In this document: piece after piece, positions 7,933-24,618 of the stretch
Layout of the letters: each line of letters begins with the position of its first letter
How positions within the stretch are numbered: position 1 is the stretch's first letter
Virus record (IMG/VR): IMGVR_UViG_3300021256_000081
Span: 1 to 64,000 of that record
DNA: 64,000 bases
Reading direction: 5' to 3' (one strand)
Source of the DNA: a virus
Lineage: Duplodnaviria; Caudoviricetes
Position numbers and translations under genes: made by a program
Notes under the pieces: model-generated
Told to the model about the DNA's origin: nothing
What the model saw: only the letters and a program-made list of their open reading frames with translations
Database searches by the model: none

Positions 7933-8280
7933 ATGAAAAGTGCGATCGAGCGGTCTAATGCGTTATATAAGGCGCTAGAGGATTTCATACTAGATGGCGA
8001 TGGGCTATATATGCCTAGAGATGTTGTGCATGAAGAGATAGATAATTTTCTTGATGATATTGAGAAACGCCGTGAAGGTTTTAATATGGACATGCTGGCC
8101 TTGGATAACGACATAGCGGATGTAGTGTATGAGAATATTTTTACTGAGTATCGGTGTATGCTTTCTGATCCGGATGTTAGCCTGCAGGTTTATATGGACC
8201 GCTTCATGGAGAATGATAAGTTCCAAGAAGGCGTACAGTTGATTCGTGAAGCCGTGCTGGAAGAGATGCGTAAAAAGTGA
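7933..8280 (+). CDS. hypothetical protein
   Basis: Own promoter and AGGAG SD, ends TGA, hairpin plus T-tract at about 8398-8438. Confidence 0.75.
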   Translation: MKSAIERSNALYKALEDFILDGDGLYMPRDVVHEEIDNFLDDIEKRREGFNMDMLALDNDIADVVYENIFTEYRCMLSDPDVSLQVYMDRFMENDKFQEGVQLIREAVLEEMRKK

Positions 8281-9201
8281 TTCCTCCTTACGAAGTAAAA
8301 TAAATCCCCTTCTTTCATGTTATGTGGGAATACCTTTCCTTTCTTTTGGTTATAATTTTATGATGCGCGGTAGAGCCTGATAATTTCCTATTGCGCCAAA
8401 AGCCTCTGCATGTTGTGCGGGGGCTTTATTTTTTTATTTAGTGCCGTTCGGTCCGAGAGGGTCCCCCTATTATATTATATAATATTTTATTAAATTTGTC
8501 AAGATGCGCTCTTGGAATGGAGAAACTTTCATATGACTACTTTTGGATTAGCTACGACTTAATTAGAAAGCCGTAGAGCGTTATAAAAGGCCTTCCAAGA
8601 GGCCCATATGAGGGTACAAGTTATGGTATAATATGGTACAACTTACGAACGGGTTGCGGCCAGGCCGTTAAACCGGACGGTTTTTTATTATATTTCCGTC
8701 CGGTATATGTATATACCCCACTTTATTATACCATATTTTTTATAAAAAATCAATAAAATTACGTTAAAACGCAGTCAATTTTGATTAAATATCCAGATTT
8801 TGCGGTATTTTTTGCGTTTTTTAGGTAAAACCGGGCGGTTTTTCTATCAAAAATTACGGTTTTTTTTGTAATTATAACATAAAAATTATGAAAAAGTCAA
8901 TAAAAATGTACTAAAAAGATAAAAAAAGTACAAATTTTGACACAAAATAGTACAAATTCCGTTCGGCGAGGCTAGAATTATTTAATTGTGGCAAAATATG
9001 AAGCATAGTTGCGGGAAAAGGGTTGGCATATGACGGACCGGAGTTGCGAGCTGAAAAATTCCATATGGGAGTGCCGGCCGGAAATTCGGGCCGCTCCTGC
9101 CGCCAGCGGCCCGCCATGCATGCAGGTATCATGCATGCATACACCCGGCAAACATGCATGCATGACCATGTATTAAAAAAAATAATGCATGGCGACATGC
9201 A

Positions 9202-9576
9202 TTACTTTCTGTGTGCTGTGAGTGAAACTGAATAATTCACACCGTTGTACGTAAAGTCGAAACTGCGTTCATCATTTACGATTTTGAGGTTCTCAATCTC
9301 ATCTTTCGGAAGCCCTCGAAACAAAGCGTCAATAAGATACTTTTTGTCGGGGTTATCCTTTTTGGTGCGTTTTGTAGGTGTTGCGCTTGTTTTGCGTGTT
9401 GTAGCGTTTGCGGCTTTGCGTGCGTTTTTCATCTGTTCCGCTGTCAAATCCCACGGCATTTCCTCGCCCCGATCGACTGCCTCGTCATCTTCTACGAGTT
9501 CCTCAGCCTCTTTCCGAGTGATACCCAATGCACGCATGTTTTTCTCGATAAGTGTTTCTTTCAGTTCAGGACGCAT
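9202..9576 (-). CDS. hypothetical protein, paralog family A
   Basis: Similar to 12053-12427 (TREEA..D...DxG; YsVxLTxHR C-terminus). Confidence 0.8.
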   Translation of the reverse strand: MRPELKETLIEKNMRALGITRKEAEELVEDDEAVDRGEEMPWDLTAEQMKNARKAANATTRKTSATPTKRTKKDNPDKKYLIDALFRGLPKDEIENLKIVNDERSFDFTYNGVNYSVSLTAHRK

Positions 9577-9599
9577 GTTTTACCTCTCTTTCTATAATT

Positions 9600-9628
9600 A
9601 TTATATCATAATAATTATTTTTTGTCAA
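9600..9628 (-). promoter_or_regulatory. consensus SigA promoter (representative of the cassette promoters from 8.5 to 21.4 kb)
   Basis: TTGACA-17-TATAAT. Similar elements precede most cassettes, e.g. 13850-13878, 14184-14211, 15397-15424, 17878-17905. Confidence 0.85.
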
Positions 9629-9660
9629 GGGGTGACCGAAAGGGGTTACCCCCTTTCGGC

Positions 9661-10014
9661 TCATGCTTTCGTGAAGTAAGCGATACCCTTTTCTTCGGTC
9701 TTTACAACACGACCATCGAGTTTAAGACCCCGAACGAGCGCATTGACCTTATTGATGGTAAATTCTGTGAGGAAGTCAAACTTCCCAATCTCGGAAACCC
9801 TGTAACGCTTGCCTGTTTCCATAGCGTCATAGATGGCGTTCATGAGTTCAACGTTCGCAAGCTGATTTTTAGTCGGCTTAGTAGAACGCCGAGAATTTTT
9901 AGCGGTCAAGAGTTCAACCTCATGATCGATGAATGCCACGAGGTCATTCTCTCCCTTTTCAACGAGAATCGCACGTACCTTCGCAAACTGTTCCTTTTTA
10001 GTTGTCTTTTCCAT
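9661..10014 (-). CDS. winged-helix DNA-binding protein, paralog family B
   Basis: C-terminal half nearly identical to 12493-12846. Ends TGA then GC hairpin at 9636-9659. Confidence 0.8.
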   Translation of the reverse strand: MEKTTKKEQFAKVRAILVEKGENDLVAFIDHEVELLTAKNSRRSTKPTKNQLANVELMNAIYDAMETGKRYRVSEIGKFDFLTEFTINKVNALVRGLKLDGRVVKTEEKGIAYFTKA

Positions 10015-10681
10015 AATTTATCACCTTTTACCTTTCCTTTTCTATAATAATTTTATCATGGATTTTTATTTTTGTCAATACCTTTTGTTGATTTTTGTAA
10101 GGTTTTTTCTTTCACCGTCCTTCCCTTCCTTACAATTCTATGATAGCACTTTTTAGAATGGCTGTCAATAGTTTTTTTAAGAGATTTTAGATTTTTTTTA
10201 TTTCTTTTTCCTTATCCCTTACAATTATTATTATACTGATTTTTTTATAAAAAACAACATACAGATTTGCAAAATTGTTGCTTGACAAATCGAAAAATCT
10301 GTGATCCAGAAAAAGAGGGTACGGCGCCCGGTATTTTAAAAGTTAGGCTTGACAAACTTCCGGGAATGTGCGTCCAGGGTGTCAAGTGCCTATTTTGGTA
10401 AAAAAAATTACCGTATCTGACACTTGACAAAAAACCGGTCGTTGCTGCAAGCCCGCGCGCCAACGACCGGCGGACATGCATGCATGGAAGTTCATTCCAA
10501 AAGAAAACATGCATGCAATCAGTCTGCAAGCATGTTCTTTAACTTCCTGCGGAAGGCACGCCGAGCACGCACCTTTTCAGCGTGCCATGCATGCGGGTTG
10601 TTCTTAACCCAACACGCAAACCTGCGCGCAAACTTATCTTCGAAAGTTGCTTTTTTGTGAATGTTGCTCTTGGTCATTTTA

Positions 10682-11371
10682 TCACCCCCTTGCAAAGCAC
10701 AAGCGATTCATTTTCTTGTGCTTTGCGAAACAGTATGCGAGAATGTCTTTCTCAATCATTACATCTTCAAGCCCTGTGTGCGATTCCTTGAAATCCTTTT
10801 CGCCTGTGATGAAGCGGTAGATAATTTCAGCGGTGAGCCGTGGTTGTCCTGTTTTTGTGAGGTAGCCATTTTCTACACAATACTTTTGGTAGGTCGGCAT
10901 GCATGCAATTACATCACGAGCCATGCGCAGAGTATCGCAGATTTCAATTCCGTAAGGGAAGAAAAAGCGGAACTTTGATTTTGTAATGTATCTTTGCGTA
11001 TTGTTCAGAGAACCATAGTCGAAACGCATGTTGTGAGCGTAAATTTCTTTTACGTTGTATTCATGCATGTCGTCAAGCAGAGTTTTTCTGATTGAGTACA
11101 TGCTTGCAAGTTTCCGCTCTCCGCTCTTGATTTCCTTTTCGTACTGCGGAAGTTTTTTTGCATAGTACGCAGATTTCATGAGCGTTTTTTCTCCAAGATA
11201 CACATCAGCATTAACAAATGATCGAGTTTTATAAACATTGCCCCTTTTATCGACAATCGCATAACCGACATCATAGACAAGCATGTTATAAGGCGAAACA
11301 CCTTCAAAATCCTTATCAAGCGGACATGTTTCTGTATCAAGCACGATTCTGTAATTAATTCTTTTATCCAT
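10682..11371 (-). CDS. DEDDh 3'-5' exonuclease (DnaQ-like)
   Basis: LDTET...AHNMRFD...CDT...HTGLEDV motifs. Confidence 0.85.
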   Translation of the reverse strand: MDKRINYRIVLDTETCPLDKDFEGVSPYNMLVYDVGYAIVDKRGNVYKTRSFVNADVYLGEKTLMKSAYYAKKLPQYEKEIKSGERKLASMYSIRKTLLDDMHEYNVKEIYAHNMRFDYGSLNNTQRYITKSKFRFFFPYGIEICDTLRMARDVIACMPTYQKYCVENGYLTKTGQPRLTAEIIYRFITGEKDFKESHTGLEDVMIEKDILAYCFAKHKKMNRLCFARG

Positions 11372-11417
11372 TTTCTATCACCTCACATGTATTATTATAG
11401 CAGATTTACAGAAAAGG

Positions 11418-11756
11418 TCAAGCCTTTTCTGTAAAAATTTCTGCAATTTCGTTCGCCTGTTCATAAATGGCAGGAAGTACCCTTTCCATGAGGTAACACA
11501 ATTCTTCCTCATTCTTGAAAGCGATTTCTTCCGCCGCATTGTCGGCTCCCTTATCATACGCAAACAGGGCGAAATGCGTAAATTCATGAATCAGGGTACG
11601 CTTCAACATGTGTTTCGGCATGTTGTTCGCAATGTAAATTTCACCTTCCGTGAAATAGGTCATTCCATGCGCGCCGTCAAGTTTTTTATGATTCGGCTTC
11701 ACATAGAAAACATCAACATCGTAAGCGTTAAAGGTTGCATAGGTCTTTTTCATCAT
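11418..11756 (-). CDS. HExxH zinc metallopeptidase-like protein (ImmA/IrrE-like)
   Basis: TLIHEFTH...EE. Start chosen after the AAAGGGGAG SD. Confidence 0.7.
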   Translation of the reverse strand: MMKKTYATFNAYDVDVFYVKPNHKKLDGAHGMTYFTEGEIYIANNMPKHMLKRTLIHEFTHFALFAYDKGADNAAEEIAFKNEEELCYLMERVLPAIYEQANEIAEIFTEKA

Positions 11757-12052
11757 GGGGCATCTCCCCCTTTCTTCTCTTAAATTATAAGCCCAAGCAG
11801 AAAAAAATGCAATAGACAATTTCAAAAAATTGTAAAGTTTTTGTGTAGGGTACGCGATCCGGAATTTCAGGACATGCGTGCATGCGTTGTCAAGTGTCAA
11901 ATTCGTCAAAAAAATTACCAGATCAGGCACTTGACAAAATCCCGGCCGTGGCGGGGTACCCTACGGGTCGCACACGGCCGGCCATGCATGCATGGGCATG
12001 CAAGCATGGAAACATGCATTAAAAAAAATCCTGCATGCATGCAGGATTCTTC

Positions 12053-12427
12053 TCACGCCTTGGGCGCGCGGTGCTTGGTGAGCTTCACAGTGTAGGCTTC
12101 ACCTGCATGAATGAAGGAGATTTCTGCTTCATTCTTCACTGCAGTAATTTCAACCTCACCTGCGAGCATGGCACGAATCTTTTCGAAGATTTCTGCCTTA
12201 TTCGCATCGACCTTGCGCTCACGCTTTACAGCGCGCTTTTCAGTCGGCGCCTTGTCCGCCTTAGTAAGCGAGCGAATCAGCTTTTTCTGTTCCGCGGTAG
12301 GCGCGCCCTTTTCCTTGTCGCCGTGGTCGATGTCATAGTCCCATGCGAGAATGTCAAGTGCTTCCTCACGCGTGCAGTGATTGCACTGCATCTGATGCTG
12401 AATTTCCTTTTCGGTAAACTGCTTCAA
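12053..12427 (-). CDS. hypothetical protein, paralog family A
   Basis: Paralog of 9202-9576. TTG start after AGGAAGGTGAT, ends TGA. Confidence 0.75.
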   Translation of the reverse strand: MKQFTEKEIQHQMQCNHCTREEALDILAWDYDIDHGDKEKGAPTAEQKKLIRSLTKADKAPTEKRAVKRERKVDANKAEIFEKIRAMLAGEVEITAVKNEAEISFIHAGEAYTVKLTKHRAPKA

Positions 12428-12492
12428 TTTTATCACCTTCCTTTCAGTTCATGCAGGCATGGCAGAGGGCTTGCGCCCCCTGCATGCATACC

Positions 12493-12846
12493 TCAAGCCT
12501 TGGTGAAGTAGGCAATGCCCTTCACTTCAGACTTGACAACGCGACCATCGAGCTTGAGACCGCGGACAAGTGCATTCACCTTGTTAATGGTGTAGTCAGC
12601 GAGGAAATCGAACTTGCCGATTTCAGACACGCGGTACTGCTTACCTGCCTGCATGGAATCGTAAATCCGATTCATGAGTTCAACGTTGGCAAGCTGATTC
12701 TTGGTCGGCTTGGTGTTGCGCCGTGCATTCTTGGCATCGGTCTGCGCGATACGAGAATCCACGAAATCCACGAGGTCAGTGCGACCTGCATCAACAGCGA
12801 GAGCGCGAAGAGCGAGATAGTTGTCCTTAACAGTAATCTTAGTCAT
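12493..12846 (-). CDS. winged-helix DNA-binding protein, paralog family B
   Basis: KPTKNQLANVELMN...INKVNALVRGLKLDGRVVK..KGIAYFTKA shared with 9661-10014. Confidence 0.8.
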   Translation of the reverse strand: MTKITVKDNYLALRALAVDAGRTDLVDFVDSRIAQTDAKNARRNTKPTKNQLANVELMNRIYDSMQAGKQYRVSEIGKFDFLADYTINKVNALVRGLKLDGRVVKSEVKGIAYFTKA

Positions 12847-13353
12847 AGTTTATCACCTTTCCTTTTCTATAATAATTATACTAAAGATTTTTTAAGATTT
12901 CAAATATTCAGTTTTCAAAGAGCACTTGATGCGAGCGGTTGGTCAGTGGGTGGCGCCGTTCCCTTTCCCTTTCCGCATTATTATAATATCATGAAAATCG
13001 GTTTCATGCTGAAAACTTTATGAAAATTTTATGAAAGTTTTTTTGAAAAAAATTGGCTCTTGACAAAAAAATTTTTTGTGCTTAGAACATTTTACCACTT
13101 TTGGCACTTGACAAACAGATGTAGGGTACGCGGATCAAAAATAGGGTACGCGGTTCCGGGAGTCCATGCATGCATACAACATGCATGCAAGTCGCGAAAA
13201 AAATTCACATGCATGCATGCCCTCAAAAATCGCGGCGTTCCAGCATACTGCGTCTGGGAACGCCGCGCCATGCATGCATGGTTAATGCATGTAAAGGAAA
13301 AAACCTGCATGCAGGTTTTTCCGTAAGAAAGGAGGACACATTTTTGGATTAAG

Positions 13354-13425
13354 TCCGCTCAGAGGGATTTGAACCCTCACCCCATCGATTAAGAGTCGAT
13401 TGCGCTACCGTTGCGCCATGAGCGG
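13354..13425 (-). tRNA. tRNA-Lys(CTT), CCA not encoded
   Basis: CCGCTCA/TGAGCGG acceptor, GCGC D-stem, ATCGA-CTCTTAA-TCGAT anticodon arm, GAGGG-TTCAAAT-CCCTC T-arm. Confidence 0.9.
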
Positions 13426-13455
13426 AGAAGGGGAAGGGGCTTTCGCCCCTTCGGA

Positions 13456-13815
13456 CTACTCGGCTTCGTCCTCGTCCTCAGCGATTGCGGAGAAGACAGT
13501 TGCCTTTCCGTCCTTCGCCTTGGCGATTTCGCCTGCATCAACCATCTGCTTGAGCAGAGCAGAAGCCTTCTGACAGGAGATTCCGACAACGTTGCCAACC
13601 TCAGTGGCAGTCAGTGCCTTTTCAGCACCTGCGAGAGCGTCAGCGATGGTCGCCTTGATTCCCTCGTTTTCCTTCTGAGCCTTGGTCAGACCCTTGCGAG
13701 CAGTCGCCTTCCGAACGCTCTTGAGCGCACGCTCCTTGAGGAACTCGAAGTCTTCAGCAGTCAGACCCTCGAATGCGATTCCGTTGATTCTTTCCTTGAT
13801 TGTAACCTTTTCCAT
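13456..13815 (-). CDS. winged-helix DNA-binding protein, paralog family B
   Basis: LTATEVGNVVGISCQKASALLKQMVDAGEI HTH, N-terminus similar to 679-1008. Confidence 0.8.
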   Translation of the reverse strand: MEKVTIKERINGIAFEGLTAEDFEFLKERALKSVRKATARKGLTKAQKENEGIKATIADALAGAEKALTATEVGNVVGISCQKASALLKQMVDAGEIAKAKDGKATVFSAIAEDEDEAE

Positions 13816-14019
13816 TTTCATCACCTTTTACCTTTCCTTTTGTGATTTCATTATAGCACCGATTTGGCTCAGTGTCAAGCCCCCTTTTCAGATTTTTTTA
13901 CCGCAATTCTTTTTTTTCTTGCGAACCAAGTAGGCACTGTCGATTGGGCTTTCAGTCGTTCCTATCTCTTGGTAATTCTATTGTAGCACTTTTGTTGTAG
14001 GTTGTCAATACTTTTTGAA

Positions 14020-14175
14020 GATTTTTTTGAGAGTTCCTGTTCTACTCTCTGCGTAGGATACGCGTCCCCTACTCAAGCCATCGGAGAACTATTGTTTTTT
14101 TGGTTGGTGGGAGTCGCTCCGAGGACTCTTAACGTCACACCCTAACGGGTTTGTGGGGTTTTCCTTCCCCTCTTT
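14020..14175 (-). ncRNA. candidate structured RNA (ORF-less cassette)
   Basis: Promoter 14184-14211, GC-rich hairpins (GAGTC..GACTC, GCGTA..TACGC, GTTCT..AGAAC), no ORF. Confidence 0.4.
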
Positions 14176-14242
14176 ACACTTTTATTATAGCACCTTTTGG
14201 CTATCTGTCAAGTGTTTTTTTAATTTTTTTTGTAAAGATTTT

Positions 14243-14369
14243 TTCAGCGTAGGATTTGAACCTACTTTTACACCTAATCCGATCACCAACCAAGGTCTGA
14301 ATGTGGGGAGAGAACCGAGTCGAACGGTTATCAGGTCTGCCTGAGTGTTACCCACCGTGGGACATCCCC
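14243..14369 (-). ncRNA. two tandem tRNA-like elements lacking a normal anticodon arm
   Basis: T-arms AACCG-TTCGACT-CGGTT (14313-14329) and GTAGG-TTCAAAT-CCTAC (14249-14265), each followed by a strand partly pairing with its 5' end. Own promoter at about 14384-14411. Confidence 0.55.
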
Positions 14370-14622
14370 TCTTTACAATTATTATTATACGCTTATTTTT
14401 TAAAAAATCAACAAATTCCGCATTTTCACACAATTTCACATAAATAGGGTACGCGCCCCGGGTTTTGGGAAAACATGCATGCAGATCACATGCATGCAAG
14501 CCCGGCGGTTTTTTTACCATTCATGCATGGCGCTGAAATTCGGCCGCCCTAGCGCACAATGAGCGAGGGCGGCGCGCCCATGCAAGCATGGAACATGCAT
14601 GCAAACCAAAAGAAAAGATACC

Positions 14623-14832
14623 TTAATAGGTATCCAATCCCATCATTTCAGCCTCAGCCTGTCCGACCCGACCATAGCACTTCAGAATCTCTTTTGGAAA
14701 ATTTTCCTTTGCGATTTTCATGGCACACTTTTTCGCCCTATCCATAGGAACATTGACTTCTACGAAGAATTCTTCTCCGCAAAGATCGCTATTTTCATCT
14801 TCGATACCGAACCACCATGTTGTTGTATTCAT
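14623..14832 (-). CDS. hypothetical protein
   Basis: Cassette with promoter and SD. Confidence 0.75.
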   Translation of the reverse strand: MNTTTWWFGIEDENSDLCGEEFFVEVNVPMDRAKKCAMKIAKENFPKEILKCYGRVGQAEAEMMGLDTY

Positions 14833-14881
14833 TTATTTTTCCTCTCTTTCTATAATTATTATAACAGATTTTTTTTAATTG

Positions 14882-15094
14882 TCAACAGTAATCTTCTATA
14901 ATATCGTTAAGAAGTATAAATGCGGTGTAGATATCTGCGGGGGTATAATCTGCCTCATTAAAAGTAAGTTTTCTTACTTTGGTATCCACTACCATTGAAT
15001 CCATTTCCTCTAAAATGGCTCGAGCATCATACAGAGCTTTCAATTCATTTTCGCTGAAATCAATTTTTACTTCTGTTCTAGTAGTGTATTTCAT
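14882..15094 (-). CDS. hypothetical protein
   Basis: MKYTTRTEV..., its TGA stop lies inside the next cassette's TTGACA. Confidence 0.7.
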   Translation of the reverse strand: MKYTTRTEVKIDFSENELKALYDARAILEEMDSMVVDTKVRKLTFNEADYTPADIYTAFILLNDIIEDYC

Positions 15095-15126
15095 TTTTAT
15101 CTCTCTCTTTCTATAATTATTATAAC

Positions 15127-15372
15127 TCACTTGTATAGCAATGTCAAGAAGTAAATATTCAAAACTACACTTGAAAGATGCATCAGCAGGTCATTAATGT
15201 GTCTGCGGTTTGTGAGGTCTTTCACAACCCCAAACAACGCAATCGTAAGACCAAACCAAGAGACAGATAGACCAAACATCATAATCAATACAACATTCAA
15301 AATCTGAATACTTGCGCGCAGGTCATTCCATTCAAATTTATAAGATTCTGTAATTCCGAAAAATTCCTTCAT
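15127..15372 (-). CDS. membrane protein
   Basis: Several hydrophobic segments, cassette promoter. Confidence 0.75.
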   Translation of the reverse strand: MKEFFGITESYKFEWNDLRASIQILNVVLIMMFGLSVSWFGLTIALFGVVKDLTNRRHINDLLMHLSSVVLNIYFLTLLYK

Positions 15373-15518
15373 TGTTGCCCCCCTTATTACAATACTATTA
15401 TAACTCCTCTATTGGATTTGTCAAGAGTTTTAATAAAATAATTTTTTCACAAATAGATCCTCCCGGGCGCATGCATGCATGGTAACTGCGCCAAAAGAAA
15501 AGCGGATTTTTAATCCGC

Positions 15519-15923
15519 TCATGCATTCAGAATCGCTTCGAATACTTCAATCTGTTTTTTCTTTTCCGCGATTTTCTGCTCCTTCTGCTTAATCTGATAC
15601 TTGATGGTCTGAATGTCATCATACAGTCCCTCTACCTCTTTACACAGAGATTCCTTCAACTGCTTGATGAAATCCGTATTAACTTCGTAGAAGTAACGAG
15701 TACCGACAATCTTTTTGCCGTAATCATCGCGAGTGATGAAATCTTCTTCACGCACCTTTTTAACCATGATGTTTTCGCGGTTAGTGTTGCAAACTCTTGA
15801 AGCACAATAGCAGTTACCTTCCGAACCGAGTTTCTGCTGATAATCACGAGCGCAGAACTCCTTGGAGCCGAATGCCTGCTGAATTGCATTTACAGTGTTA
15901 ATCATTTTAGCGTAGTCTTTCAT
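15519..15923 (-). CDS. hypothetical protein with C-terminal coiled coil
   Basis: ORF track, cassette promoter and SD. Confidence 0.75.
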   Translation of the reverse strand: MKDYAKMINTVNAIQQAFGSKEFCARDYQQKLGSEGNCYCASRVCNTNRENIMVKKVREEDFITRDDYGKKIVGTRYFYEVNTDFIKQLKESLCKEVEGLYDDIQTIKYQIKQKEQKIAEKKKQIEVFEAILNA

Positions 15924-16054
15924 GTTTTCTTACCTCTCTCTTTACAATTATTATTATACGGATTTTCAAAATAAAGTCAATAGTTTTTTCAAAAATTTTT
16001 AAGTTAATTTTTTCACAAGCAGATCTTCCGGGTGACATGCACGCATGAAAAAAA

Positions 16055-16465
16055 TCAACCCCACAGAATTGCAGGATTGATTGCGGTACCTCTCCAAGAG
16101 TTCCGAATCGGTTCAGAATCATCAATCAGAATTGCATTTTCAGAACCTTTCAGATTTTTATTGTGTCCATAGACTTTGTAAATGCGTTTTGTGATTGAAG
16201 GGAAGAACCTATCGAGCCAAGCATCTTTCTGAGCCTGAACGTTTTTGCAGTATTCTTCAGATGCTCCAAGCGGTGTCATGGACAGCACTTTAATTTCGTA
16301 TTTGTCTTTTGGAAAACATGCAAGCAGGGTTTCTTCACTGATGAGCGGTTTGCACTCAAGGAAGATTTTTTCGTCAGATTCACGCAGACGAGGAAGCCAA
16401 TTTTCGATTCCGTACAGGTCTGCGATTGTTCCGTCCATGTCAAGATACACATTGATTTTTTTCAT
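16055..16465 (-). CDS. HAD-superfamily 5'(3')-deoxyribonucleotidase-like protein
   Basis: YLDMDGTIAD...VLS...K..W...K...ILIDDS motifs. Confidence 0.8.
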   Translation of the reverse strand: MKKINVYLDMDGTIADLYGIENWLPRLRESDEKIFLECKPLISEETLLACFPKDKYEIKVLSMTPLGASEEYCKNVQAQKDAWLDRFFPSITKRIYKVYGHNKNLKGSENAILIDDSEPIRNSWRGTAINPAILWG

Positions 16466-16512
16466 TTCCTTACCTCTCTTACATGTTTATTATAACAGAT
16501 ATTTCTTTATTG

Positions 16513-16797
16513 TCAAGCCATTAAAGAAACATTTTGCGCTTTTTCCAAAAGATCAATCAATTTATCGGCGTCTGTGGGTTCTTCCACATTCTCAATTTCG
16601 AGAATTTCTGTAACCCTTTCAAACAATTCTCGACTAACCGCTTTCAAACCCTCAATATTATTTACCGCAAAATTAGTTGCCTGTTCTTGAGTCATTCCGA
16701 AACCCTGCGCGGTGGTGCAAAAAATTGCACATGCCGCTTTCAAGTTTTCATCCATAATGCTTTTTGCCTGCGCCCAAGTAATTGTGTCGTTTTTCAT
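16513..16797 (-). CDS. hypothetical protein
   Basis: ORF track, cassette. Confidence 0.75.
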   Translation of the reverse strand: MKNDTITWAQAKSIMDENLKAACAIFCTTAQGFGMTQEQATNFAVNNIEGLKAVSRELFERVTEILEIENVEEPTDADKLIDLLEKAQNVSLMA

Positions 16798-17033
16798 TTT
16801 TCTTTACCTCTCTTTACGTATTCATTATAGCACCTGCGCCGTTGGGCTGTCAAGGTTTCGGGAGAAAATAATTTATAAAAAATTTTTAAAAAATCGCTTG
16901 ACAAATTTGCGTTTGTGTGGTACGCCGAAAAAACCGACCCGCGCGGGCCACCTCCGGTCGCAGGCGGGCGGCCGCACATGCAAGCATGAATCCAAAAATA
17001 AAACGAAAATAAAAATCATGCAAGCATGATTTT

Positions 17034-17189
17034 CTATTTTGATTTTGAAATGTCCTGCTGGAGCGATTCATTTTCTGATTCTAATTCCGCAATACGAAAT
17101 TTCAGATTGCGGATTTCATCTTTCGCATCCATAAAATTCTGTCTCCAGATTTCCGCCATGTCGATAGTGTCTTTTTCTTCTTCAAACAT
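17034..17189 (-). CDS. small coiled-coil protein (51 aa)
   Basis: MFEEEKDTIDMAEIWRQNF..., AGAGAGGTAA SD. Confidence 0.65.
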   Translation of the reverse strand: MFEEEKDTIDMAEIWRQNFMDAKDEIRNLKFRIAELESENESLQQDISKSK

Positions 17190-17242
17190 AACTTTACCTC
17201 TCTTTACATAATTATTATAACATTATTTTTTTAAAAAGTAAA

Positions 17243-17653
17243 TCACTGCAAGCAAGCAGTGATTTCTTTGTTCCATGCATCCATGTCGGTCATGTTGTAG
17301 TAGGCAATCGCCCAATCAGTAGCGACCATTTCGACCTGTTCGTAAAAGTGTTCATTTGCTTTCACGCATGCATGCTGACTTTTTCGCACTTCCTCTTGAT
17401 CGAAATATTCGAGGGTGTAGTGATGTCCGAGTTCATGCAGAACGGAGAGAGAGAACCAATTTTCATGAGTGAGGTCAAAATTGAATTCCTTTTTGAGGAA
17501 CTTTTTCCAATCAAGATTATCGAGGTAACCCTCATTAATGTTAATCTCGATTGCGTTGTCGCCCCAATGATACATGAAGGTATCACCTGCGATGATACTG
17601 CAATCATGCCCAATCATGTCGCCAACGACTTTCACCAATCTTTTAACATCCAT
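17243..17653 (-). CDS. HExxH zinc metallopeptidase-like protein
   Basis: LHELGHHYT...VEMVATDWA. Confidence 0.7.
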   Translation of the reverse strand: MDVKRLVKVVGDMIGHDCSIIAGDTFMYHWGDNAIEININEGYLDNLDWKKFLKKEFNFDLTHENWFSLSVLHELGHHYTLEYFDQEEVRKSQHACVKANEHFYEQVEMVATDWAIAYYNMTDMDAWNKEITACLQ

Positions 17654-17696
17654 AAGGATTACCTCTCTTTCTATAATAATTGTATCATAATTTTTT

Positions 17697-17852
17697 TTAG
17701 TTGTCAATACGGTTTCTGCCGATGTACTGAATGTTATCCATTACATAGCAGGCACCGAAGTTGTCAGCGAGATCCATCCACGCTTCATCCTCTGTTTCTT
17801 TCATCATTGTGATTGTTGCGCCTGTGCAGGTATCATAGAATGTGTATGTCAT
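17697..17852 (-). CDS. hypothetical protein (51 aa)
   Basis: MTYTFYDTCTGATI..., promoter and AAGGAG SD. Confidence 0.65.
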   Translation of the reverse strand: MTYTFYDTCTGATITMMKETEDEAWMDLADNFGACYVMDNIQYIGRNRIDN

Positions 17853-17925
17853 AATCTTATCTCCTTTTTACAATTTTATTATAGCACGCTCTTGGATTTT
17901 GTCAAGCCCTTTTGAGGGAATTTTT

Positions 17926-18105
17926 TTAAATTCCCTCTGAGAGCATTTCCCACTCTTCGCGAGTATTGCAAGAGTAGGAAGCCCAGCCGTAAGGCTCCTC
18001 GAGGATGTCGGCATACTTGAAGCCGCCGTCCTCGTACCAGATGGCACCGCCTGCCTTAACAGCGAATACCGTGCAGTATGCGGCAATCAGATCCATGTGT
18101 TCCAT
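17926..18105 (-). CDS. hypothetical protein (59 aa)
   Basis: MEHMDLIAAYCTVF..., promoter and SD. Confidence 0.65.
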   Translation of the reverse strand: MEHMDLIAAYCTVFAVKAGGAIWYEDGGFKYADILEEPYGWASYSCNTREEWEMLSEGI

Positions 18106-18171
18106 AACTTTTACCTCTCTCTCTTCCCTTATAATATAGCACCTTTTGGCTTGCCTGTCAAGAGGGTTTTT

Positions 18172-18609
18172 TCAAGCCCTCTTGAACTTTGCAATCTGTT
18201 TGGTGTTCATCAGTGTAGCAGAATCAAGTTTAATCTGAATCTGTTCGCCATTGACTTCGATGTCACCCTGTACCCAAAACGGAACTGTATCTTTTTCCCA
18301 AGTCTGACCGAAGTATTCAGTAACGATTTTCTCGAAGATTTCGCCCTTATTGTACTTTTCAGCGGTCAGCAGGTCAGCACTTCCGAGGAGTACCGCGCCC
18401 TTATGGAGCAACTGCTTTTTATACTGGCGCTTGATGCGGAGCCTGAGGTTTTCGCCCTGATTGCGGCTTGCCTGTTCTACCTGTAAGAATCTAGGCATAA
18501 TTTCCGCAACTTTGGTCATGTACAGATTGCCGTCATAGGTGAATCCGATAATGTAGGAATCAGCGGCGGAGTGAGTGCGGTAGTGCTTAATCATCGTGGT
18601 TTTGTTCAT
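18172..18609 (-). CDS. putative PD-(D/E)XK-fold protein
   Basis: NKGEIFE...GDIEVNGEQIQIK resembles a restriction-nuclease-like core with QxK. Confidence 0.5.
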   Translation of the reverse strand: MNKTTMIKHYRTHSAADSYIIGFTYDGNLYMTKVAEIMPRFLQVEQASRNQGENLRLRIKRQYKKQLLHKGAVLLGSADLLTAEKYNKGEIFEKIVTEYFGQTWEKDTVPFWVQGDIEVNGEQIQIKLDSATLMNTKQIAKFKRA

Positions 18610-18810
18610 GGTCTTAACCTTCCTTACACTTATAATTATAATCACTTCCGGAATGATTGCAAGGGTTTTTATAAAAAAAGTTAAATTTTTTTATTTTTTT
18701 TGGCGGATCCATGAAACAATTTTCAAAAACATGAAAAAATGTAATGTAGGGTACGCGTGCGAGGTTTCGGGATGTTACCGATTTTGTCAAAAATTTTTTT
18801 GATTTTCCTC

Positions 18811-18839
18811 TTGACTTCTGGCCCTACGTGTGCTATAAT
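18811..18839 (+). promoter_or_regulatory. counter-oriented SigA promoter
   Basis: TTGACT-17-TATAAT with extended TG, followed by the GTTAG-N6-CTAAC palindrome at 18848-18863. Confidence 0.7.
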
Positions 18840-18884
18840 TTTCGATCGTTAGCGGTGACTAACCGAACGCAATAAAAAAAGCGG

Positions 18885-19049
18885 TTATTCCGCTTCACAA
18901 CGGCGGAGAGCCGCCTTGCGGGTATCGAACCCCGCCATGCCGCCCTCGGCATCGATGACGTACCACGTCACCCGTCCGCTAGTAGCGGCAACCACCTTCT
19001 TGATGGTGTAGGCTCCAGCAGCCCAAGTGTTTTCAGCGATTTTCTTCAT
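18885..19049 (-). CDS. hypothetical protein (54 aa)
   Basis: MKKIAENTWAAGAYTIKK..., promoter and AAGGAG SD. Confidence 0.65.
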   Translation of the reverse strand: MKKIAENTWAAGAYTIKKVVAATSGRVTWYVIDAEGGMAGFDTRKAALRRCEAE

Positions 19050-19109
19050 GTGTTTATCTCCTTTTCTTTACATTCTTATTATAGCAGATTCCGGAATAAT
19101 GTCAAGCAG

Positions 19110-19271
19110 TTAAGCAGAAATTTTTTCAATTTCTGCTTTCGCTGCCTGTATCCGCAGGTGCAGCAGCATGATGTCTTTCCGCACATCCTGCAGTGCCTCT
19201 TTCTGCATACGTGCCTTGTTAATGAGATTATCAACTGCCTGCTCCATTTCGATGAGTTCCTGCTTTGTCAT
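19110..19271 (-). CDS. small helical protein (53 aa)
   Basis: MTKQELIEMEQAVDNLI..., cassette. Confidence 0.65.
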   Translation of the reverse strand: MTKQELIEMEQAVDNLINKARMQKEALQDVRKDIMLLHLRIQAAKAEIEKISA

Positions 19272-19347
19272 AGTTCTTACCTCTCTTACATTATCATTAT
19301 AACACTTTCCTTCTGGTTGTCAATAGTTTTTTATAAAAAAATGAAGC

Positions 19348-19527
19348 CTATTTGAAGGCTTCGAGAGGGAGTTCCACCCATTCCCCGATGGAGTTGCCCA
19401 CCATGTCGAGGAACCTCTCTGCGAGGCTTGCCCGTGCCTGCAGGCGAGTGAGGGCCTCGTCACGGATTGCGAGGGTGATTTCCTCACCTGTTACTGTATT
19501 AGTCCAAGTTCTGCTGATTTCTGTCAT
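19348..19527 (-). CDS. hypothetical protein (59 aa)
   Basis: MTEISRTWTNTVTGEEI..., cassette. Confidence 0.65.
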   Translation of the reverse strand: MTEISRTWTNTVTGEEITLAIRDEALTRLQARASLAERFLDMVGNSIGEWVELPLEAFK

Positions 19528-19707
19528 GTTCTTATCTCCTTTTCTTTACATTATTAGTATAGCACACTTTTAAAGCGTGTCAAGTATTTTTTAGGATTTT
19601 TTTAAGTTATTTTTTTCACAAGCGATCCGCTCAAAATTTTCTGTAATGTAGGGTACGCGCAAATTTGTGCAGTTAGCGACCGCTAACCGCATTCACGAAA
19701 AAAAGAA

Positions 19708-19857
19708 CTAGGCGATTGCCGCCAGTTCCTTTTCGACCTTTTCGATTTCCGCTTTCAGCGTCTTGGCGAGGTTGAAGTCGTAACCTCTGTCCTTATTCTC
19801 GTTTCTGAGGTACTCCCATTCGAGTTCAGCGAGTTTCTTTTCGAGCATTTCTTTCAT
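19708..19857 (-). CDS. small helical protein (49 aa)
   Basis: MKEMLEKKLAELEWEYL..., cassette. Confidence 0.65.
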   Translation of the reverse strand: MKEMLEKKLAELEWEYLRNENKDRGYDFNLAKTLKAEIEKVEKELAAIA

Positions 19858-19906
19858 TTCCTTATCCTCTCTTTCTACTTTTATTATACCTTTTTCCGGG
19901 GTTTTG

Positions 19907-20029
19907 TCAATGCTTTTTAATAATTTTTTTAATTTTTTCTGTAACTGTTACCCATGCCCACGCTACTGCTACAAGTGGCGCCGCCATCAGTAGAATTCCC
20001 ATGTTGTGTGCAATCATCCAGTCGATCAT
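19907..20029 (-). CDS. single-TM peptide (40 aa)
   Basis: MIDWMIAHNMGILLMAAPLVAVAWAW..., cassette, TGA stop inside the next TTGACA. Confidence 0.55.
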   Translation of the reverse strand: MIDWMIAHNMGILLMAAPLVAVAWAWVTVTEKIKKIIKKH

Positions 20030-20093
20030 TTTTTTATCCTCTCTTTACATTATTATTATAACATTTTATTTTTATTTGTCAATACTTTTTTTA

Positions 20094-20204
20094 TTAAATG
20101 CGTGTGCTGTCAAGCAGTAACAATGTAACGAATCCAATTGTAAGTGCGACAACTGTGAAGGCGATTGCCAGCAGTTCAAGGTCAAACAGTGCGCTAGGTG
20201 TCAT
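20094..20204 (-). CDS. single-TM peptide (36 aa)
   Basis: MTPSALFDLELLAIAFTVVALTIGFVTLLLL..., cassette. Confidence 0.55.
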   Translation of the reverse strand: MTPSALFDLELLAIAFTVVALTIGFVTLLLLDSTRI

Positions 20205-20427
20205 AATTTTATACCTCTCTTTACATTATCATTATAACGCATTCCGGTGAAATGTCAATAGTTTTTTATAAATTATTTTTTTCACAAAGTCACGTTTCGG
20301 GATCACATGCATGCAGGTGACATGCGCGCATGTCGTCGCGATTTATCTGCTTGTTAATTATTTCACAAATTTTGGGCCGTTAGCGGTAGCTAACTCAAAT
20401 CAAAATAAAATAAAAAAAGATGAGGAC

Positions 20428-20622
20428 TTAATCCTCATCGTCATCCCAGCCCGCAGGCTCCGGAGCTTCGGAACCCTGCAGGGCGATGGCATTGTCTGCC
20501 ATGTCGAAGTCGGGATCGACTCCGTCAAGCTTGACCCAGAAGTCAAGGCAGGTGTCGTGCAGGATAACCTGCTTGTCCTGCGGAAGCTCAGCGAGCTTAG
20601 AGATGAGTTCGGAAACTGTCAT
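20428..20622 (-). CDS. hypothetical protein
   Basis: MTVSELISKLAELPQD..., AAGGAGG SD. Confidence 0.75.
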   Translation of the reverse strand: MTVSELISKLAELPQDKQVILHDTCLDFWVKLDGVDPDFDMADNAIALQGSEAPEPAGWDDDED

Positions 20623-20895
20623 GTTGTTTGTCCTCCTTGTTCCTTACAATTATTATTATACTCATCCGGTAACTGATTGCAATACTCGAAACGCAATTTG
20701 ATAGACTTTTTTAATTTAATTTATTATTTTTTATGAAAACTTTTTCATAGAATGTAACAATGTAATGTAGGGTACGCATGGCGCCTGGTGCGCACATAGC
20801 CATGCACGCATACACCTTGCATGCATGTCTGCTCCTGGACTGTGTGATTTTTTTCACAAGTGGTGTCGGATCGCAAACAAATAAAAGAGAGCGGT

Positions 20896-21162
20896 TCATC
20901 GCTCTCCGTAGAGTGTTCTCACGGGTTCGCCTTCGTAGAAGAACACTGTTACCCTGTCCTCTACATCAAGGTCGTCTGCTTCAATCTCGTGAATGTTTCC
21001 ATCGTCAAGCACAACAATGTAGTAGTCGTTGCTCTCTGCATAGCCTTCATAGGTCTGTTCTACTATTGTGCCATGCTGTGCTGTTACACCTACAGCCTGC
21101 AGGTCGATGTTGTTACCACGTGCGTACAGCGTGATGATGATGGCGATGATAACCCTCAGCAT
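20896..21162 (-). CDS. secreted or membrane-anchored small beta protein
   Basis: N-terminal hydrophobic segment, abuts the upstream gene. Confidence 0.7.
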   Translation of the reverse strand: MLRVIIAIIITLYARGNNIDLQAVGVTAQHGTIVEQTYEGYAESNDYYIVVLDDGNIHEIEADDLDVEDRVTVFFYEGEPVRTLYGER

Positions 21163-21333
21163 TTACTTGCCCTCTCTTTCTGCTACTGTGTAAGTGTGCA
21201 GTACCTCGTAGCAATGTTCCTGTACAAGATAGCAGACACTGCGTGAGTACAGATTCTTTCTGTTACGCAGAGCGTTGTAGTATCTGTGCGCCTGTGCCTT
21301 GTCATTGAATGTGCGTCTGTAGGTCTTTGTCAT
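21163..21333 (-). CDS. hypothetical protein (56 aa), first cassette of the leftward array
   Basis: MTKTYRRTFNDKAQAHRYYNAL..., promoter at about 21364-21393, AAGGAG SD. Confidence 0.65.
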   Translation of the reverse strand: MTKTYRRTFNDKAQAHRYYNALRNRKNLYSRSVCYLVQEHCYEVLHTYTVAEREGK

Positions 21334-22194
21334 AGTGTGTATCTCTCCTTACCTTACATACACATTATACACCTTGATGCACTAACATGTCAATACCTAA
21401 TGATTGACAATGTTGTATTATTGTTAATGTTTTGTTGTTGCGTTGTTCTTCTCTCTTCTTCTTCTCTCTGTCTCTCTTGGCTGGCTGGCGCCTGCCCTGC
21501 CCCTTGCCTGCCGGTACCCCTGCATGCATGTCCTGCTGGTAACGTTTCTGGAAACGTTTCCAGCCTGTTCTGATCTAAACCGGTTTAGTTGGTGGTGTTG
21601 TAGTTAGTGCTGACTAACTACTAATAGGTCAAGGTGTGTTCATCACCTGTTAGTGGTTAGCCTTGACTAACTCTACATGCATGCGTGTCACATGCTTGCA
21701 GGTTACGGGCAGCAGACAACGCTGGCCAGCGTGTCGCGTGCGAGCGACAGATTTCTGTATAGTATAGGCACGCTAAACAACGGCCGCTGCGCCCATCAGC
21801 GGCCGTACGAGCATCTATTATGTATTATTATCTCTTGCAATTATTTATTTATTGTTGTTGTATTGTTCTATCATTGTGTGTGTTGCTGTTGTGTCTCTCT
21901 CTGTGTGTGCTTGTGCCTTACTGTGCTGCGCAGGTGTGCTTGTCTGCTGTGTCTCTGCGGGGCCTTTGACGGGGGCCTGCATGCGATGGCCTTGTCGAGC
22001 TTCTAAGAATCTACCAACGTACTTGTGTATTTTTTGTCAGATGAAAACCCGGGGGGTGGGTTTCGGGATAAAAATTTTTTGAAAGGAAGGAAACATTATT
22101 CTCTCACCCCCACTCCCAGTCAATCCCTTTTTAAATCCGAAATCACGATTTCCTGAAAATTTCCTATATGGGCAGGAATTTTTCCAAACACGGT

Positions 22195-23517: not shown

Positions 23518-24618
23518 ATGATCAAATTAGATTATTCTTTAAAAACTCCTGAAGAAAGATTAGAATTAGTTAAAAAGATATTAGAAGAAAATCCACATCC
23601 GAATTCTTCTTACTTAGAAATTTTAGCGAACTACTTAATCTTCTGTATGGAGAAAGAAGAGAAAAAGGAGAAAAAAATTCTCACTGAAAACCGTATGGCG
23701 ACAGTGAATAAAAGAGAAACTTCCTATGAAGGACTTGTATCCCAGTTTGAAAATGGAGAAGATGGTGTTTATAACATCACAAATAATGACAAACACGTAA
23801 TATTCCAACCAAAAATTTCAATAACAAAAAAAGATAGAGAAGATATACCAGAATTATCACAAACAGATGAAGCTATTGCGGCCTGGAGCGAGCGTCTCAA
23901 AAGATGCGAGGGTCGTGATGCATACATCGCCAAAACAGCACAAATAGACGCAAGAAAAGATCAATATATAATTAAACAACATCGTAAGCCTCCTGTTCAA
24001 GCTATGCATTTAGTGCATTCTGAACACCACACAGTTTTACCCGATGATACATGGATTGATGAAGATGGGAATGTAGTTTCAGAAGGAGTGTCCTTAACAA
24101 ATCCTACCGTCTGCTCAATAATTCTATGCAATTATTCTAAGTTGCGCCAGAATTGTTATGGAGACTTTTTTAGTGATACCTGATACCTTATGGAGGAATT
24201 TGATAAGGTTAGTTTGCGCGCATTGCATGACAAGCCTTTATATTACCGCTTAGTAGAATGTAAGATTGATGGTATGCAAAATGTAGAAATACAGGAAGTT
24301 TTAGAAGAAGAATTTGGCATTAAACATAGTCTTGAATATATCTCATCCCTTTGACGCAATAAAATACCTATCTTAATTGCGTCTGCGGCAGAAGATGATT
24401 TTCTTGACTGATATTATTTAAACATTGAAAAAGGTGTTTATAAACGTTGCAGCAGATGCGGTCAAATAAAATTAGCTCATAATAAATATTTTAGTAAAAA
24501 TAAAACAAGCAAAGACGGCTTCTATTCTATTTGTAAGGAATGTCGTAATAAGAAAAAGCCTAAATTTGAAGAAGATGGACAAAACCCCCCAATCTCATTC
24601 TCTAATTCTAAGAAATAG
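23518..24618 (+). CDS. 366-aa putative regulator with HTH-like region and C-terminal Zn finger (3 in-frame TGA)
   Basis: Frame continues through TGA at 24181, 24352 and 24409 to TAG. CSRC...CKEC motif. Confidence 0.7.

Follow-up and report, generated by a model that had tools for sequence, protein, structure and literature searches.

The stoperators of temperate phages are asymmetric sites that are oriented with transcription and are found throughout the genome, where a monomeric immunity repressor binds them. In the IncP plasmids, the operators (OB) of KorB, a ParB-family protein, form a 13-bp palindrome that is present at about a dozen places, near to and far from promoters, all under the one global regulator. 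The GATC clusters that act through Dam methylation (oriC/SeqA, P1 pac) are local concentrations of a 4-bp palindrome that is selected at the level of the DNA. The first-step-transfer region of phage T5 and the host-takeover module of SPO1 are terminal blocks in which small early genes with strong promoters of the host type span about 10-13 kb; the T5 block is free of certain restriction sites. Here, we compare with these systems the IMG/VR virus record IMGVR_UViG_3300021256_000081 (Duplodnaviria; Caudoviricetes), where a 12-bp dyad, CATGC-NN-GCATG, recurs 36 times between positions 9115 and 21702 in a block of small early genes, and we propose, with moderate confidence and on the basis of the sequence, that the dyads form an array of operators through which a dimeric DNA-binding protein would govern early transcription. 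The window, i.e., the whole stretch of DNA that was analysed, is the first 64 kb of this 87,733-bp record, for which CheckV gives a completeness of 46%.

The stoperators of the Cluster A mycobacteriophages (L5, Bxb1) are a partial analogue: in the accessible parts of the sources, dozens of copies of one short site are present through the transcription units, the site sequence differs between lineages, and the bound protein is thought to stop transcription and to repress promoters (PMC9283540, PMC6550527). The many copies through transcription units and the difference between lineages are found here as well, with 36 sites in 12.6 kb, eight of them in open reading frames (ORFs). By contrast, the site here is a palindromic dyad instead of an asymmetric oriented site, it is confined to 13 kb, and, as regards a temperate lifestyle, no Phage_integrase or Resolvase domain is present in this record (G000) or in four whole relatives (G001-G004, 142-178 kb, 93-100% complete). 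Because no such domain was found in these five, the phage group is probably virulent.

With the KorB operators the locus shares one palindrome at many places and at variable distances from promoters, and a ParB_N domain, as expected of a KorB/ParB-type binder, was found in none of G000-G004. As compared with the GATC clusters, the conserved unit here is not a 4-bp site but a 12-bp dyad with conserved inner C and G (in eight of 11 cases, see below), which is spread over 13 kb of transcription units with no methyltransferase found, although dispersed CATG is also favoured. With T5 and SPO1 the locus shares a block of small early genes with host-type promoters, and the lack of certain restriction sites in the T5 block has a counterpart here, where ATAT, AGCT and GATC are avoided in the early block only. 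Another likeness is to the PeSL cassettes of the T4-type phages, which, in the accessible parts of the sources, are near-identical early promoter and terminator modules that flank small variable ORFs (PMC2839356, PMC4122927). Strains of PeSL-bearing phages differ by recombination between the modules, as is the case here, where we find the promoter repeat families D1-D9, 16 perfect promoters, terminators in the long spacers, and recombinant joints in three sequencing runs and in the strain variant L210. To our knowledge, the PeSLs have no separate palindromic operator array, and the CATGC dyads are an added layer here. The statement in the preliminary description of this window that no described system matches the domain was too strong, since the stoperators, the KorB operators and the PeSL cassettes are partial analogues.

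The dyad and its confinement to the early block

The preliminary description had reported a 13-kb domain saturated with CATG-core repeats, and the counts confirm it. Taking 9000-22000 as the domain and the other 74.7 kb of the record as the outside, CATG is present 144 times in the former and 158 times in the latter, i.e., a surplus of about five-fold, which is more pointed given the purge of other palindromes there (see below), with the Markov observed/expected ratio (O/E) being 1.74 inside and 0.72 outside. In the 2-kb bins over 8001-22000 the numbers are 20, 32, 27, 18, 22, 11 and 18, while all other 2-kb bins of the window hold 0-9. The confinement is sharper for longer motifs: in the whole record, CATGCATG occurs 30 times inside and never outside, GCATGC 32 times inside and three times outside, and ATGCAT 40 versus 27 times, while the 26 matches of CATGCATGCA all lie within 9115-21530 and its reversed control pattern has none.

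The description of the repeat as runs of CATG or (CATG)n holds for the enrichment and fails for the unit, which is the dyad CATGC-NN-GCATG and not (CATG)n as such. With a site defined as this sequence with at most one mismatch over the ten arm positions, there are 36 sites in the domain and two outside (38 in the record), compared to a mean of 0.53 and a maximum of three in 200 domains simulated with a first-order Markov model. Fourteen of the sites have perfect arms, with the centre being AT in six, AA in four, and GT, AG, AC and GC in one each; eight of these 14 are not (CATG)3 and lack both ATGCAT and GCATGC. Without presupposing the arms, six of the 17 cases of CATG-N4-CATG are (CATG)3, and in eight of the other 11 the inner positions are C..G. 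The centres AA/TT break the purine-pyrimidine alternation, and the idea of a Z-DNA-type alternation, which had been raised for (ATGC)n, is rejected.

The arms carry 1.2-2.2 bits of information, as compared with 0.5-0.8 bits for the centre and about 0-0.2 bits for the adjoining 15 nt on each side. Because the flanks carry so little, recent duplication of one spacer, which the preliminary description had named as a possible origin of the clusters, fails as an explanation, and the sites are islands in unrelated sequence. The distance between neighbouring sites is exactly 15 bp in five of 35 cases and 14 bp in one, and a sixth 15-bp pair (14474/14489) arises if the two-mismatch copy at 14474 is admitted. 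After removal of the 36 sites, 76 CATG are left in the domain (5.9/kb versus 2.0/kb in the late region), half of them with the G or C flank of a half-site, compared to 29% in the late region, which gives about 38 half-sites beside the roughly 36 dyads. A pac, origin or parS reading was considered and rejected, as the sites extend over 12.6 kb and more than ten spacers and no ParB was found.

The tandem form is rare elsewhere. IMG/VR, scanned for exact CATGCATGCA pairs with 1-30 nt between the copies, gave 24 stretches, none of them from relatives and none with homologues of 34 proteins of the domain region. In 185,579 species genomes, 37 stretches were found against about 17 expected by estimate, with no arrays, no homologues and no evident host. 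A separate observation from the contigs is a dispersed intergenic element of 15-bp-period GGCATGCATGCAARA units that carries CATGCATGCA on at least four contigs (L089, L091, L106 and L116 of one metagenome-assembled genome, and L118); it belongs to an unrelated uncultured bacterium and looks unconnected to the phage motif.

The signal extends into coding sequence, as had been claimed, where it is real and smaller than in the spacers, with the CATG excess coming mostly from two genes. In codon-preserving shuffles of the 28 conservative ORFs taken as the gene set of the domain (three doubtful ORFs being dropped), CATG is present 55 times versus 39.4 ± 3.8 and the 12-mer site eight times versus 1.30 ± 1.07, with none of 500 shuffles reaching either number. 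The two genes are 10682-11371 (10 CATG versus a shuffle mean of 3.7) and 17243-17653 (10 versus 6.5); with both left out, CATG is 35 versus 29.4 (23 of 500 shuffles), while the sites are still five versus 0.73 (0 of 500). The former, on the minus strand, is DEDD-exonuclease-like (phrog_20187), has CATGCATGCA at 10898 and a site at 11099, and its 10 CATG compare with 0-5 across 12 orthologue rows. Four of the 10 result from a synonymous codon at places where CATG is missing from all five orthologues compared, as with AAC-ATG here and AAT-ATG in the five, and the other six come with amino-acid differences. The latter gene, also on the minus strand, has sites at 17274 and 17363, and its two orthologues have three and one CATG. 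The peptides that the preliminary description had read across the motif, IACMP, QHACV and LACF, as well as SMQAG versus AMETG in two paralogs, are all present.

The base before ATG codons in the 28 genes is C in 32, A in 17, G in 12 and T in seven cases, compared to a background of C 642, A 541, G 573 and T 645. T is avoided relative to A+G (odds ratio 0.42, p = 0.036), and the contrast of C with T is strong (odds ratio 4.6, p = 6e-5), part of which is avoidance of TATG and not gain of CATG. None of the codon biases found in the domain is seen in 51 late ORFs, where CATG equals the shuffle expectation (67 versus 67.9), so the late region lacks the enrichment, as had been stated. The claim of selection at the DNA level over a defined domain is borne out by the 36 sites versus 0.5 expected, the intragenic excess after codon shuffling, the synonymous CATG in the exonuclease-like gene, the codon bias in the domain genes only, and the lower divergence of the sites between strains (see below).

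The same block is depleted of other short palindromes. Within 9100-22000, ATAT is present 10 times versus 51 expected (O/E 0.20; in coding sequence five versus 27.4 shuffled), AGCT has an O/E of 0.38 (in coding sequence 10 versus 26.1) and GATC in coding sequence is 11 versus 28.9, and the early block alone also avoids TATG/CATA. Outside the domain the O/E is 1.04 for ATAT and 1.02 for AGCT. In the closest relatives compared (L022-L024, L033-L039), the O/E of ATAT is 0.30-0.49 on the early sides and 1.08-1.14 on the late sides, and they have early-side gaps of their own (GTAC 0.05 and GCGC 0.21 in L024; also GGCC). This suggests that the early block may meet host nucleases under other conditions than the rest of the genome, for which the first-step-transfer DNA of T5, with its separate exposure to nucleases, offers a parallel.

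Architecture of the early block and map of the sites

The domain comprises some 28 small leftward genes grouped into many short units, of which nearly every one has a TTGACA-N16-18-TATAAT promoter and a AGAGAGGTAA-type ribosome site. The promoter scan gave 65 sites versus 31.9 ± 5.6 in shuffles, with the 16 perfect (12/12) sigma-70 promoters of the small early genes all on the minus strand and spanning 8474..21393. The promoter and ribosome-site repeats form the families D1-D9, the promoter repeats being 36-60 nt long. Rightward of the domain come a folD-like gene (phrog_7320, 22439-23248, minus strand), just outside it, and other leftward genes, and then, on the other side of the early/late divide, the divergent phage sigma-factor gene (phrog_5767, 23518..24183, plus strand), which starts the rightward late block of structural genes.

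Most long spacers carry the motif, not every one as had been written: the 12-mer site is present in 10 of 13 intergenic regions of at least 130 nt and in one of 14 short promoter-only spacers. Along transcription, a long spacer is composed of the stop codon and an intrinsic terminator, then CATGC sites interleaved with GC-rich hairpins, then one or two copies of CGCGTACCCTA(CA), then a TTGTGAAAAAA half box and then the next promoter. Six of the spacers have a site that directly adjoins a GC-rich hairpin on the 5' side, at the foot of the stem.

At the left edge, three sites (9115, 9130 and 9153; 9115..9164), with 9115/9130 being a 15-bp pair, are found downstream of the block's last gene, near a terminator-like minus-strand hairpin (9183..9204) whose stem AATGCATG/CATGCATT is followed by T8 on that strand. 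A site at 10475-10486 and CATGCATGCA at 10508-10517 lie in a 3' region ahead of a GC-rich terminator hairpin. Downstream of gene 12053-12436 are three sites (11873, 11983 and 11997; 11873..12008) and a 16-nt perfect palindrome, CCTGCATGCATGCAGG, at 12030..12045 (minus strand), which with the T8 after it is an intrinsic-terminator-like hairpin made of the motif. This palindrome and the bidirectional terminator-like hairpin AAAAACCTGCATGCAGGTTTTT at 13297..13320 are the two cases in which the motif had been said to sit inside terminator hairpins, and both are present. The perfect-arm site CATGCAGGCATG (12450..12461) lies in the 56-nt intercistronic spacer of a winged-helix cassette, and four sites (the pair 13165/13180, 13208 and 13269; 13165..13280) surround a GC-rich hairpin. 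The cluster at 14474..14603 is composed of the pair 14474/14489, 14518, 14579 and CATGCATGCA at 14594.

Further to the right, the perfect CATGCATGCATG (15470..15481) lies between a terminator and the promoter 15424-15397, the perfect-arm site CATGCACGCATG (16036..16047) lies upstream of the promoter 15980-15953, and of the two perfect-arm sites CATGCAAGCATG at 16977 and 17017 (16977..17028) the former abuts a GC-rich terminator hairpin. The 15-bp pair 20306/20321 (20306..20332) has a Rex-like box with one mismatch 18 nt off, at 20351-20368, and the pair 20801/20816 (20801..20827), where the ORF 20711-20899 is a doubtful call, adjoins a Rex-like box with two mismatches at 20842-20859. A site at 21519 and the pair 21676/21691 (21519..21702) form the right edge.

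Other features of the block are as follows. A second lineage-specific motif, TAGGGTACGC, has seven copies on the plus strand (11846..20777, with starts at 11846, 13122, 13142, 14445, 18747, 19649 and 20768); in its form (TGTAA)TGTAGGGTACGCG all copies are in plus orientation, opposite to the early genes, and they are often 20-40 nt from CATGC sites. It is absent from the relatives except the strain variants L186 and L210. A tRNA-Lys(CTT) gene lies inside the block (13353-13425, minus strand), where one contig of a goat run has about 80 other letters instead; Rfam on 8300-22200 (E <= 0.1) gives tRNA only. Six consensus promoters, at 14411, 14211, 14008, 8900, 8753 and 8502, have no ORF after them (in 13825-14420 and 8300-9100), and such units may be small RNAs; among them is a unit with a tRNA-like T-arm (GGTTCAAATCC), where ARAGORN and Rfam call nothing.

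Relatives, strain variants and candidate binding proteins

Public runs that hold this stretch are cattle, sheep and goat gut or rumen metagenomes (20 rows, nine studies), with one of the samples possibly being the source. When compared by megablast with 50,697 phage records, the domain had no match, and the nearest named relatives in the portal are Phass-1, which has 35.6% identity, and, at about 26%, large siphoviruses of Firmicutes. Relatives were found via a 229-aa gene and the sigma-factor gene and have genomes of 142-200 kb. In 39 related loci CATGCATG has 0-2 copies each, and the four whole relatives have four, three, zero and one dyad sites versus 38 in this record. The CATGC-like sites at G001:3150-3298 (three) and G002:146892 (one) are in coding sequence and look like chance.

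The architecture of the early region is common to the relatives, while the palindrome differs. The locus L023, from genome G001, has 11 boxes of TGTGA-N6-TCACA and L017 has six. These boxes occupy the corresponding spacers from terminator to promoter, and AGTTAG-N6-CTAACT hairpins often come after them. In the whole of G001 (176 kb) there are 12 perfect TTGTGAA-N4-TTCACAA boxes with all centres A/T (W4): nine are at 12042-13859 (to 13876), at a distance of 2-3.7 kb from the sigma gene, winged-helix cassettes adjoin the other three (1241, 172834 and 173409), and the remaining ~150 kb have no perfect Rex-type box. TTGTGAA-W4-TTCACAA is the Rex operator consensus reported for Staphylococcus aureus (PMC2883068). 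The Rex operator of Gram-positive bacteria, a palindrome for a winged-helix dimer, thus occupies in G001 and L017 the spacers equivalent to those of the dyad. The sequence differs from that of the dyad, and this record has no perfect Rex box; it retains several half boxes and three degenerate boxes (1-2 mismatches), of which two are within 20 nt of CATGC pairs. Because the relatives carry Rex-type boxes and degenerate ones are kept here, the CATGC dyad seems to be derived in this lineage, either as a replacement or as an addition. No Rex DNA-binding domain is above the cut-off in G000-G004, and the accessible parts of the literature searched made no mention of a phage with arrays of Rex boxes. 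A confined domain comparable to the present one does exist among the relatives, since G001 has one with another motif.

Two side observations concern these loci. Hairpins of GTTAG-N6-CTAAC at 18811-18870, 19672, 20379, 21603 and 21656 are common to L022, L023 and L017, and a plus-strand TTGACT-17-TATAAT promoter at 18811-18839 points at such a hairpin and may give a small antisense RNA. The loci L029 and L030 are nearly without CATG (three in ~20 kb) and AGCT (three on the early side, none on the late side), which points to their hosts having CATG- and AGCT-specific restriction. The "direct terminal repeat" of G004 is only a 127-bp overlap and is uninformative on the genome ends.

The scan of metagenome contigs gave at least 118 stretches, at least three of them belonging to relatives of the phage. 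In L186, which has 90% identity over 981 nt, the sites 13165, 13180 and 13208 are unchanged, the GC hairpin near 13165-13280 has one compensatory pair change, and site 12450 is in a shifted register. L210 is a recombinant joined at or beside the CATGC sites 14579 and 13269. In the aligned parts of both, three of 121 site positions differ versus 62 of 693 other non-coding positions (p = 0.011), where deleted positions are counted singly and the non-coding divergence is inflated by this; 38 of 541 coding positions differ. Three further runs have contigs that match the domain at 85-99% likeness, and contigs from cattle, sheep and goat runs join distant promoter repeats (14189/20075, 14231/20047, 14394/19318 and 10099/15934). 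These joints between distant repeats therefore indicate that the strains differ by whole cassettes, as in a PeSL-like shuffling. Contigs of RNA libraries also cover parts of the domain, which is not evidence of transcription.

Three related winged-helix-like proteins are encoded in the domain. Two of them, of 117 aa (9661..10014 and 12493..12846, both minus strand), are 69% identical and are the candidate binders; they have no Pfam match and align with the third, of 122 aa (13456..13824, minus strand), which has a weak MarR/TrmB-type match (MarR_2, E = 7.5e-4, 20 bits versus a cut-off of 27). Each 117-aa gene belongs to a duplicated two-gene cassette (9202-10014 and 12053-12846), the copy at 12-13 kb being the GC-richer (0.51 versus 0.45), with a downstream partner gene of 124 aa (9202..9576) or 127 aa (12053..12436), both on the minus strand and 29% identical. 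Sites are present inside the cassette at 12-13 kb, at 12644 in the 117-aa gene and at 12159 and 12342 in the partner gene, and the densest arrays bracket both cassettes. The relatives have two to five winged-helix paralogs each, and in G001 the same cassettes have Rex-type boxes just past their downstream ends. The putative recognition helix is TINKVNALVRGL in both 117-aa copies here and SGNKVSALVRGL in both copies of G001. The 122-aa protein is probably a less likely binder because its G001 orthologue has the same putative recognition helix. Pfam and PHROG gave no DNA-binding family on all small ORFs of the domain, and the other small ORFs are without family.

Explanations and their meaning

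In our proposal, the domain would be the early region, transcribed by the host RNA polymerase from consensus sigma-70 promoters, and the CATG excess would come mainly from the ~36 dyads and ~38 half-sites, to which a symmetric (dimeric) protein would bind sequence-specifically. The sites, which lie at the operon boundaries from the intrinsic terminator to the next promoter, often directly 5' of a GC-rich hairpin, with five, arguably six, tandem pairs at 15-bp spacing, would provide coordinated control of the whole early block by shut-off, insulation or road-blocking of read-through, and the weaker half-sites in some ORFs would extend the occupancy. We infer a symmetric protein because the dyad has conserved arms and a free centre, because the spacing of the pairs is fixed, and because the sites are placed between units, diverge more slowly than their flanks and have a known operator type in their place in the spacers of the relatives. 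Of the options that the preliminary description had offered, a lattice for a DNA-binding protein fits these features best. The winged-helix paralogs of the phage itself, both of whose cassettes are bracketed by the densest arrays, are the favoured candidate binders, with a host regulator being the alternative.

Several points weigh against this proposal. The motif itself makes terminator-like stems (at 9183-9204, 12030-12045 and 13297-13320), and the distances from site to promoter vary. The winged-helix assignment is from one sub-threshold Pfam match and a sequence pattern, with a PDB profile search giving nothing below E = 0.26 and the Atlas nothing useful for the paralogs, and the half-site centres, 7 bp apart, are close for a classical helix-turn-helix dimer. 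The putative helix of G003 is NSQKVTALVTKL, yet G003 has Rex-like boxes; the correlation of helix with motif is weak, over two to three genomes, and G003 speaks against a simple one-to-one link. In the coding sequence, C is favoured before ATG relative to A+G (odds ratio 1.9, p = 0.015), and the His codons CAT:CAC are 11:4 before G versus 8:19 elsewhere (p = 0.01). Such a codon bias is not required by a strict 12-mer operator, and a reader of the 4-mer fits it equally.

This last point leads to a device based on CATG methylation, in which a methyltransferase would mark the domain and the methylation state would time early expression in the Dam/SeqA manner, the methylation being full on the incoming DNA and hemi or none after replication. 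For it speak the synonymous choice in ORFs, which favours the bare tetranucleotide, the 76 leftover CATG with their higher density than in the late region, and the near absence of CATG from L029 and L030, which implies that CATG-specific systems exist among the hosts of the group. But conservation extends past CATG to the inner C and G of the arms, so that the unit is wider, part of the C-before-ATG bias is avoidance of TATG (T versus A+G), no D12 (PF02086), N6_N4 (PF01555) or C5 (PF00145) methyltransferase domain is present in the 87.7-kb record, 46% complete, and no D12 domain in G001-G004. The option of a methylation switch is weakened by this and appears quite improbable to us, for the device as such as well as for the detailed course of its methylation states. 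Even less credible, indeed barely worth entertaining, is a decoy for restriction or defence proteins specific for CATG, ATGCAT or GCATGC, an option which had also been raised: the early-only avoidance of ATAT, AGCT and GATC makes restriction pressure plausible, but eight of the 14 perfect-arm sites lack ATGCAT and GCATGC, cleavable sites in cis on the first-expressed DNA of the phage itself would be a liability, and the late region avoids CATG only mildly (O/E 0.72-0.78). Alternatively, the copies could act in RNA, pairing in early transcripts to give processing, stability or termination hairpins. Many sites lie in 3' regions directly ahead of GC-rich terminator hairpins, and the tandem pairs fold to 8-10-bp stems, of which the terminator scan found one (14498-14476), with the flanks extending the pairing in three of six pairs. 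A lone dyad with a 2-nt centre cannot fold, however, and most sites are single; what is kept is the sequence and not complementarity, with the AA-centred copies in one orientation, which would mispair at the centre; several sites lie between the terminator and the next promoter, where transcription is not expected; and the z-scores of the folds, between -0.5 and -3.4 for the minus strand and between 0.0 and -3.0 for the plus strand, are modest. We consider an element acting in RNA highly unlikely.

Little credence can also be given to the view that the dyad is a homology patch with little function of its own, spread by recombination or gene conversion among promoter-terminator cassettes, or to its variant of a PeSL-like modular shuffling of patches possibly derived from terminator stems. 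The strain contigs that join 14189 to 20075 and 14231 to 20047, the joints of L210 at or beside the sites 14579 and 13269, the three terminator stems made of the motif and the precedent of the PeSL cassettes in the accessible parts of PMC2839356 and PMC4122927 are in its favour. On the other side, the site flanks are unrelated and the arms are kept while the centres vary, sites and CATG are in excess inside ORFs, partly via synonymous changes, the sites diverge less than their flanks between strains, and 12 bp is a poor substrate for recombination beside the promoter repeats of 36-60 nt. Less improbable than these, and still unlikely, are operators for a host factor, which would couple early expression to host physiology or titrate the factor as the genome replicates; we judge likewise the version in which the factor would be Rex in the relatives and a CATGC-binding host regulator here. 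The 12 perfect copies of the Rex consensus (PMC2883068, as seen in part) confined to the early region of G001 are in line with it, as are the failure of a Rex DNA-binding domain to rise above the cut-off in G000-G004, the Rex-like boxes of both G001 and G003 despite different putative recognition helices, and the degenerate Rex-like boxes and half boxes kept beside CATGC sites in the window. Against it, the 185,579 species genomes scanned for the tandem form gave no array and no evident host. We know of no bacterial regulator with a CATGC-NN-GCATG operator. Such a factor was also not found in the accessible parts of the literature on CATGCATG as an operator or repressor site, and the ArgR boxes, as described in the accessible part of PMC5839063, were rejected as a match, having a different geometry. 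The broader idea of an early-region operator array swappable between host transcription factors, with Rex serving in the G001-like relatives and a CATGC-NN-GCATG regulator here, is possible while we hold it doubtful. If it is true, either the early programme would be gated on the metabolic state of the host, Rex being a sensor of redox state and NADH, or the replicated genome would soak up the regulator and derepress its regulon; the selection at the codon level would extend the lattice into ORFs.

The Rex-box arrays in the relatives offer a directly testable link of phage early expression to host redox state. The codon-level signal indicates that a regulatory or DNA-reading constraint reaches into protein-coding sequence, and the enrichment of one palindrome in the block from which others (ATAT, AGCT and GATC) are purged gives a handle on the DNA that is first exposed to host defences. 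The sites and the perfect promoters are ready-made parts for transcription studies in rumen Firmicutes. Returning to the proposed operator array for a dimeric protein, if the dyads are operators, the locus would be a compact natural case of a single regulator acting on more than ten transcription units in the early region of a large uncultured phage of the rumen that is probably lytic, and the lineage swap from the Rex-type box to the CATGC dyad would show the rewiring of such circuits.

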